Shown piece by piece: positions 32,878 to 32,962 of a stretch of DNA of 64,000 nucleotides; the first letter of the stretch is position 1; the number at the start of each line of letters is the position of its first letter. The DNA lies in NCBI RefSeq assembly GCF_036507355.1, contig NZ_AP027877.1; one strand, written 5' to 3'. A model generated the notes under the pieces. That model did no database searches. It had not been told where the DNA came from and saw only the letters and a list, made by a program, of their open reading frames with translations. This stretch comes from Escherichia coli (lineage in GTDB: Bacteria; Pseudomonadota; Gammaproteobacteria; Enterobacterales; Enterobacteriaceae). The position numbers were made by a program, and so were the translations under genes.

Positions 32878-32888
32878 AAATCGCTTTA

Positions 32889-32906
32889 CCTCAAGTTAAC
32901 TTGAGG
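32889..32906. promoter_or_regulatory. SoxR operator within soxS promoter spacer
   Basis: Perfect palindrome CCTCAAGTTAACTTGAGG between divergent soxR and soxS. Confidence 0.7.
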
Positions 32907-32962
32907 AATTATACTCCCCAACAGATGAATTAACGAACTGAACACTGAAAAGAGGCAGATTT

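Follow-up and report, generated by a model that had tools for sequence, protein, structure and literature searches.

The 18-bp palindrome between soxR and soxS of Escherichia coli as a SoxR operator within two overlapping divergent promoters

Results

Genes at the locus

The window, by which we mean the whole 64,000-nucleotide stretch of DNA analysed here, is part of an Escherichia coli chromosome. It carries soxR and soxS as divergent genes, separated by an intergenic gap of 85 bp (32878-32962):

32413-32877, minus strand: soxR, 154 aa, MerR-family [2Fe-2S] redox sensor (open reading frame list, TIGR01950, PDB identity)
32963-33286, plus strand: soxS, 107 aa, AraC/XylS-family activator (open reading frame list, NF007584, RefSeq annotation)

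The SoxR open reading frame scored 248 bits against the NCBIfam equivalog model TIGR01950 (cut-off 116.9), and that of SoxS reached 228 bits against NCBIfam NF007584 (cut-off 174); with the RefSeq annotation in agreement, these matches bear out the names that the initial annotation had given to the two divergent flanking genes. All residues of SoxR (154/154) agree with PDB chain 2zhg_A, described as 'redox-sensitive transcriptional activator SoxR', and the protein carries the cluster motif CX2CXCX5C at residues 119-130 (Cys119/122/124/130), the same four cysteines that are given as the [2Fe-2S] ligands of SoxR (PMC9909328). It remained below cut-off for the CueR and ZntR profile models, and scored 40 bits on the MerR model, for which the cut-off is 151.

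When a 1-kb query around the site was compared to complete E. coli genomes, a match was found in 5,425 of 5,426, the best ones being O145:H28 genomes (99.8%). RefSeq annotates the matched region in E. coli as soxR / soxS / pdeC, and the gene order around the site is yjcE-ghxP-soxR-soxS-pdeC-yjcB-ssb. PMC4234026 prints, as a primer, the K-12 soxS promoter fragment that served there as an oxygen-inducible expression cassette, and positions 32877-32965 of the window match it without a single difference.

We note that the soxR-soxS-pdeC locus also matches 14 plasmid-labelled records (e.g. AP026530.1, CP061233.1, NZ_OL790696.1 and NZ_CP048307.1). Those listed are mostly 0.37-4.9 Mb in size, with one of 94 kb, and chromosomal neighbours are present in all of them. 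A mobile, plasmid-borne soxRS was considered and set aside, since the records look like chromids or chromosomal DNA submitted under a plasmid label. The match in NZ_CP141089.1 falls into two pieces, with ~180 extra bases.

At the 3' end of soxR, a full-length match to Rfam RF01408 (151.5 bits; 32280-32420, plus strand) corresponds to sraL/RyjA, an Hfq-binding sRNA whose gene converges with soxR and runs 8 nt into the soxR 3' end (stop codon 32413-32415); a 13-bp stem at 32389-32419 looks like a terminator common to both. On the other side, the soxS stop codon (33284-33286) is only 2 bp away from the convergent pdeC, a 531-aa EAL-domain open reading frame on the minus strand (33289-34884). Past the soxS stop, and inside the 3' end of pdeC, a GC-rich inverted repeat formed by CCCGCGCG (33295-33302) and CGCGCGGG (33311-33318) may be a candidate soxS terminator; neither a clear T-run nor a terminator call was found at this repeat.

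The palindrome and its chance expectation

The sequence CCTCAAGTTAACTTGAGG is located at 32889-32906 and occurs once in the window. It is a perfect, gapless inverted repeat with 9-nt arms, in which 9/9 arm pairs are complementary. The perfect 18-bp palindrome that had been claimed for the soxR-soxS gap is thus present as 9+9 nt; the coordinates that came with the claim (32878-32962) correctly delimit the intergenic region that holds it, and describe the whole 85-bp gap, not the palindrome itself. Its reading as the SoxR operator is upheld by PMC4411124, which prints this exact 18-mer as the SoxR box consensus of E. coli; the site has 0 mismatches to it.

The chance expectation for CCTCAAGTTAACTTGAGG with at most 3 mismatches is 0.01 per window, but an expectation for one specific 18-mer does not tell how often a palindrome of whatever sequence arises by chance, for which any gapless perfect palindrome of at least 18 bp must be counted. 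By that count, dinucleotide-shuffled windows held a mean of 0.305 palindromes and 26% of them held at least one, against three in the window itself (11877, 32889 and 57850). The palindrome alone is weak evidence because 26% of the shuffles hold one and the window three. The same figures, together with the unrelated contexts of the two others, favour the reading of the palindrome as a product of chance, or as resembling a restriction site (GTTAAC centre), devoid of function, which we weigh below against the comparative data. The strong evidence for an operator lies in the promoter context and in the conservation across species, the palindrome by itself not being compelling.

The two other palindromes are both perfect over 20 bp. 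The first, CGTTATTGGTACCAATAACG (11877-11896, plus strand), lies inside fdhF and may be coincidental; the fdhF selenocysteine codon, an in-frame TGA at 11917-11919 spanned by an Rfam SECIS_2 match (11912-11966), lies 20 nt downstream of the end of this palindrome. The second, AGCCGGATGATCATCCGGCT (57850-57869, plus strand), is followed by TTTTTT and is an ordinary intrinsic terminator (plsB), located between plsB (827-aa open reading frame, ending at 57726) and the convergent ubiA (290-aa open reading frame, ending at 57881); REP-like sequences, GCCGGATG / CTTATCAGGC, precede it (57740-57850). Two more perfect palindromes, of 16 bp, are found at 10818-10833 (GCTTTGATATCAAAGC) and 12541-12556 (CCGGATACGTATCCGG), which brings the gapless palindromes of at least 16 bp to five in the window versus 1.24 expected in shuffles, 0.5% of which reach five. 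The window also contains a match to naRNA4 (RF02564), a REP-derived nucleoid-associated RNA family, at 14435-14505 on the minus strand (75.2 bits, gathering score 59.5).

Promoter anatomy

The elements that surround the palindrome are as follows:

32889-32906, no strand: SoxR box CCTCAAGTTAACTTGAGG, 18-bp palindrome, SoxR homodimer site (sequence, PMC4411124 and conservation)
32885-32890, plus strand: soxS -35 hexamer TTTACC, 4/6 to TTGACA, assigned from sequence
32891-32909, plus strand: soxS spacer TCAAGTTAACTTGAGGAAT, 19 bp, two bp above the sigma-70 optimum
32910-32915, plus strand: soxS -10 hexamer TATACT, 5/6 to TATAAT, assigned from sequence
32913 to 32908, minus strand: candidate soxR -10 hexamer TATAAT, consensus hexamer, putative assignment
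32884-32916, no strand: conserved core C-TTTACC-(19 nt)-TATACT-C, 33 nt, comprising both promoters and the operator

The initial annotation had placed the site in an overlong soxS spacer, and had named a position other than between the soxS -35 and -10 elements as what would speak against this. The two hexamers are 19 bp apart and, since the palindrome occupies the interval between them, this objection falls away. The claim of an overlong spacer thus stands, with one amendment: the first two bases of the palindrome are the last two of TTTACC and belong to the -35 element, so that it is not wholly within the spacer. Its other end is 3 bp from the soxS -10 hexamer. [quoted passage not shown] A generic sigma-70 consensus scan with spacers of 16-18 bp did not call the soxS promoter; this is not counter-evidence, because spacers of 16-18 bp are the only ones that the scan accepts.

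On the minus strand, the candidate soxR -10 hexamer lies directly upstream of the SoxR box and overlaps the soxS -10 hexamer by 4 bp. With soxR divergent from soxS, this TATAAT would fit a soxR promoter that overlaps that of soxS; the -35 candidate, TCGTTA, was read by eye and is weak (3/6). From the positions of the hexamers, soxS transcription is expected to start at ~32921-32923, and that of soxR probably ~7 nt past TATAAT, at ~32901, which would place it in the middle of the palindrome. The proposed soxR -10 hexamer and start are consistent with PMC6612552, which reports that the two promoters overlap, that the SoxR site is located between the soxS -10 and -35 and downstream of the soxR -10, and that SoxR represses soxR in both redox states. 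The same site would double as the operator for soxR autorepression.

A palindrome could also act at the level of RNA, as a hairpin, for example in a long soxR leader, with an effect on mRNA stability, attenuation or translation. A hairpin with a 7-bp stem and a 4-nt loop can indeed be folded on either strand, at -9.5 or -9.1 kcal/mol (z -4.4 and -3.2), and an early study that located a soxR promoter within soxS (Wu & Weiss 1991, cited by PMC6612552) would be in its favour. The position of the box argues otherwise: it lies upstream of the soxS -10 and is therefore absent from soxS mRNA, and a soxR transcript directed by the TATAAT at 32913 to 32908 would include half of the box only. In addition, there is no T-run after the hairpin on either strand and no terminator was called at the box, while shuffled versions of the whole 85-nt leader fold as well as the leader itself (z -1.1). 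Direct binding by SoxR, by comparison, is reported in the literature (PMC4411124, PMC6612552, PMC9909328), and a SoxR-DNA crystal structure exists.

Conservation across species and strains

A scan for SoxR in one genome per species yielded 80 soxR loci, each of which was anchored on the best box match at most 400 bp upstream of soxR. An enteric-type set of 45 loci (44 distinct sequences) comprises Enterobacteriaceae and Erwiniaceae, with genera that include Escherichia, Citrobacter, Enterobacter, Cedecea, Pluralibacter, Pantoea, Erwinia and Tatumella; the non-enteric set of 35 loci covers Pseudomonas, Rhizobium, Acidovorax, Sphingomonas and others.

The exact 18-mer is present in all enteric-type loci (45/45), each of which also carries a divergent soxS (tblastn, 62.6-99% identity), and SoxR identity falls as low as 65% across the same set. 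When the 44 distinct sequences were compared over the 33-nt core, 31/33 columns were invariant and the remaining two had a single deviant each; the soxS -10 TATACT is invariant in 45/45 loci. Outside the core, the majority fraction is 0.60 for the 6 columns of the soxR-side flank and 0.59 for the 40 adjacent columns in the direction of the soxS 5'UTR, where 0/40 are invariant. The site is thus under purifying selection relative to its flanks. This pattern also leaves the RNA hairpin short of an explanation for the invariance of the -35 and -10 hexamers and of the non-palindromic AAT. The energetics of folding would allow an RNA-level role, but position and conservation pattern speak against one, and we consider it highly unlikely.

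Of the 5,426 complete E. coli genomes, about 5,400 carry the 33-mer without any change, 18 carry it with one mismatch and 1 with two. About 6 genomes that carry the locus have no 33-mer match at all. In the clinical (human) isolate E138 (NZ_AP022351.1, 501874-502141), an IS1-family element follows directly after ...CTTGAGGAATTA; the insertion is inside the soxS -10 hexamer, at the equivalent of window position ~32912, and splits the SoxR box from soxS.

The non-enteric boxes differ from CCTCAAGTTAACTTGAGG at 1-7 of the 18 positions, and the 23 distinct variant boxes keep a mean of 7.26 of 9 symmetric pairs. The -35 register is conserved in 79/80 of all soxR loci, as TTTACC in 46 and TTGACC in 33, the latter being found in 33/35 of the non-enteric loci; there, a TAnnnT-type hexamer, mostly TACCCT, follows 19 bp downstream. 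Changes compensated on both arms exist among the variant boxes, e.g. in CCTCTAGTTAACTAGAGG and CCTCAACTTAAGTTGAGG; over the 23 variant boxes they number 13, versus 9.0 in the re-pairing control (fraction 0.062), which is suggestive and not significant. In the 35 non-enteric loci soxS was not found, the search giving one weak AraC-type match of 30%.

These comparisons weigh heavily against a functionless chance palindrome. An exact box in 45 species-level genomes, with only ~60% conservation of the intergenic bases around it, its near-constancy among the E. coli genomes, and the dyad symmetry and 19-bp register kept in Pseudomonas, Rhizobium and others are all at odds with that reading, and the probability that we attach to it is negligible.

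It could also be argued that the operator serves chiefly another dimeric regulator, be it a MerR paralogue or SoxS itself through autoregulation, and SoxR secondarily. MerR-family operators do have the same architecture, and SoxS is reported to repress its own expression, which counts for this possibility. Yet the dyad box adjoins soxR in 80/80 loci, including those without soxS, and the literature names SoxR for the site (PMC4411124, PMC6612552); a leading role for another regulator is thus extremely improbable. A scan with the marbox/soxbox consensus AYNGCACNNWNNRYYAAAY at up to 2 mismatches gave no SoxS-type site within 32850-32990 and 11 matches versus 16.8 expected in the whole window, a result that carries no information on SoxS autoregulation.

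Discussion

Taken together, promoter context and conservation make it nearly certain that the palindrome is the operator of a SoxR homodimer, placed within two overlapping divergent promoters. Operator and promoter are those of E. coli soxS base for base, and are already known and part of textbooks. Footprints, spacer-deletion phenotypes and the crystal DNA were reportedly described by Hidalgo & Demple (1994, 1997), Hidalgo, Leautaud & Demple (1998) and Watanabe et al. (2008), and PDB 2ZHG is SoxR crystallised on soxS promoter DNA. In K-12, a spacer shortened outside the dyad reportedly gave high, SoxR-independent soxS expression and made SoxR a repressor (Hidalgo & Demple 1997). For the site in this window, SoxR binding and redox-dependent activation are predictions carried over from the literature.

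The mechanism expected at this site would start from the 19-bp spacing, by which the -35 and -10 elements would be too widely separated, and wrongly phased, for sigma-70 RNA polymerase; the low basal level of soxS would follow from this misphasing, which PMC9909328 describes for the -10 element. The SoxR homodimer would bind the dyad in both redox states, and oxidised and reduced SoxR have been reported to have similar affinity for soxS promoter DNA, with activation by the oxidised form only (PMC8063818). Redox-cycling compounds, superoxide stress or NO would oxidise the [2Fe-2S] clusters (oxidation/nitrosylation), upon which the bound dimer would kink and untwist the palindrome centre (GTTAAC); a ~90 degree kink at the dyad centre is seen in crystal structures of MerR-family proteins with DNA, including SoxR-[2Fe-2S]/DNA, 2ZHG (PMC9909328). 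Such a distortion would realign the -35 and -10 elements and shorten the distance between them, allowing the sigma-70 holoenzyme to form an open complex. This would be 'activation by DNA distortion' of the MerR type, as opposed to recruitment in the classical sense. SoxS would then switch on its regulon. On the opposite strand, the bound dimer would cover the start of the soxR promoter, and SoxR would therefore repress its own gene in both redox states.

The 33 nt may also owe their invariance to a further constraint, on top of those set by SoxR binding and the overlapping promoters, such as the mechanics of the spacer DNA or an extra factor. This is raised by the fact that non-palindromic spacer bases and two non-consensus hexamers are invariant while SoxR identity drops to ~65%; we regard it as unlikely. 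If it were true, rare disruptions, of which the IS1 insertion in E138 is an example, could alter soxS expression. That insertion would in itself either uncouple soxS from SoxR or place soxS under IS-derived transcription.

The SoxR-soxS switch, a paradigm of MerR-type activation by DNA distortion, is the basis of the response to superoxide and redox-cycling drugs; SoxS adds to multidrug resistance, and the module is in wide use as a biosensor and for expression. The comparative numbers given here quantify the conservation of the operator/promoter core, and the established picture is unchanged.

Comparison with known systems

The closest reference is the E. coli K-12 soxS promoter, with which the window shows no difference in either operator or promoter; the window strain itself differs from K-12 and is another E. 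coli strain. The mercury-responsive merT promoter of Tn21/Tn501, controlled by MerR, resembles that of soxS in that, according to passages of PMC11049809, PMC9909328 and PMC9303308, it carries a dyad between -35 and -10 elements with a 19-bp spacer and lies next to a divergent regulator gene; repression of this gene from the same site and activation by DNA distortion would also be common to both. The two differ in the dyad sequence and in the signal, which is Hg(II) bound by cysteines for MerR and oxidation of the [2Fe-2S] cluster for SoxR. Over-long spacers and a central kink in the palindrome are likewise described, in passages of PMC9909328 and PMC7722741, for CueR/copA, ZntR/zntA and BmrR/bmr, whose effectors and dyads are different from those of SoxR/soxS.

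Non-enteric SoxR boxes (Pseudomonas, Xanthomonas, S. maltophilia mfsA, Streptomyces) carry a related, CCTCAA-N6-TTGAGG-like dyad (PMC4411124, PMC4146615) and share with E. coli the 19-bp -35/-10 register and the adjacent soxR. Their promoters differ from that of E. coli soxS in having TTGACC at -35 and mostly TACCCT at -10, and in these systems, which lack soxS, a small number of efflux or oxidoreductase genes are under direct SoxR control.
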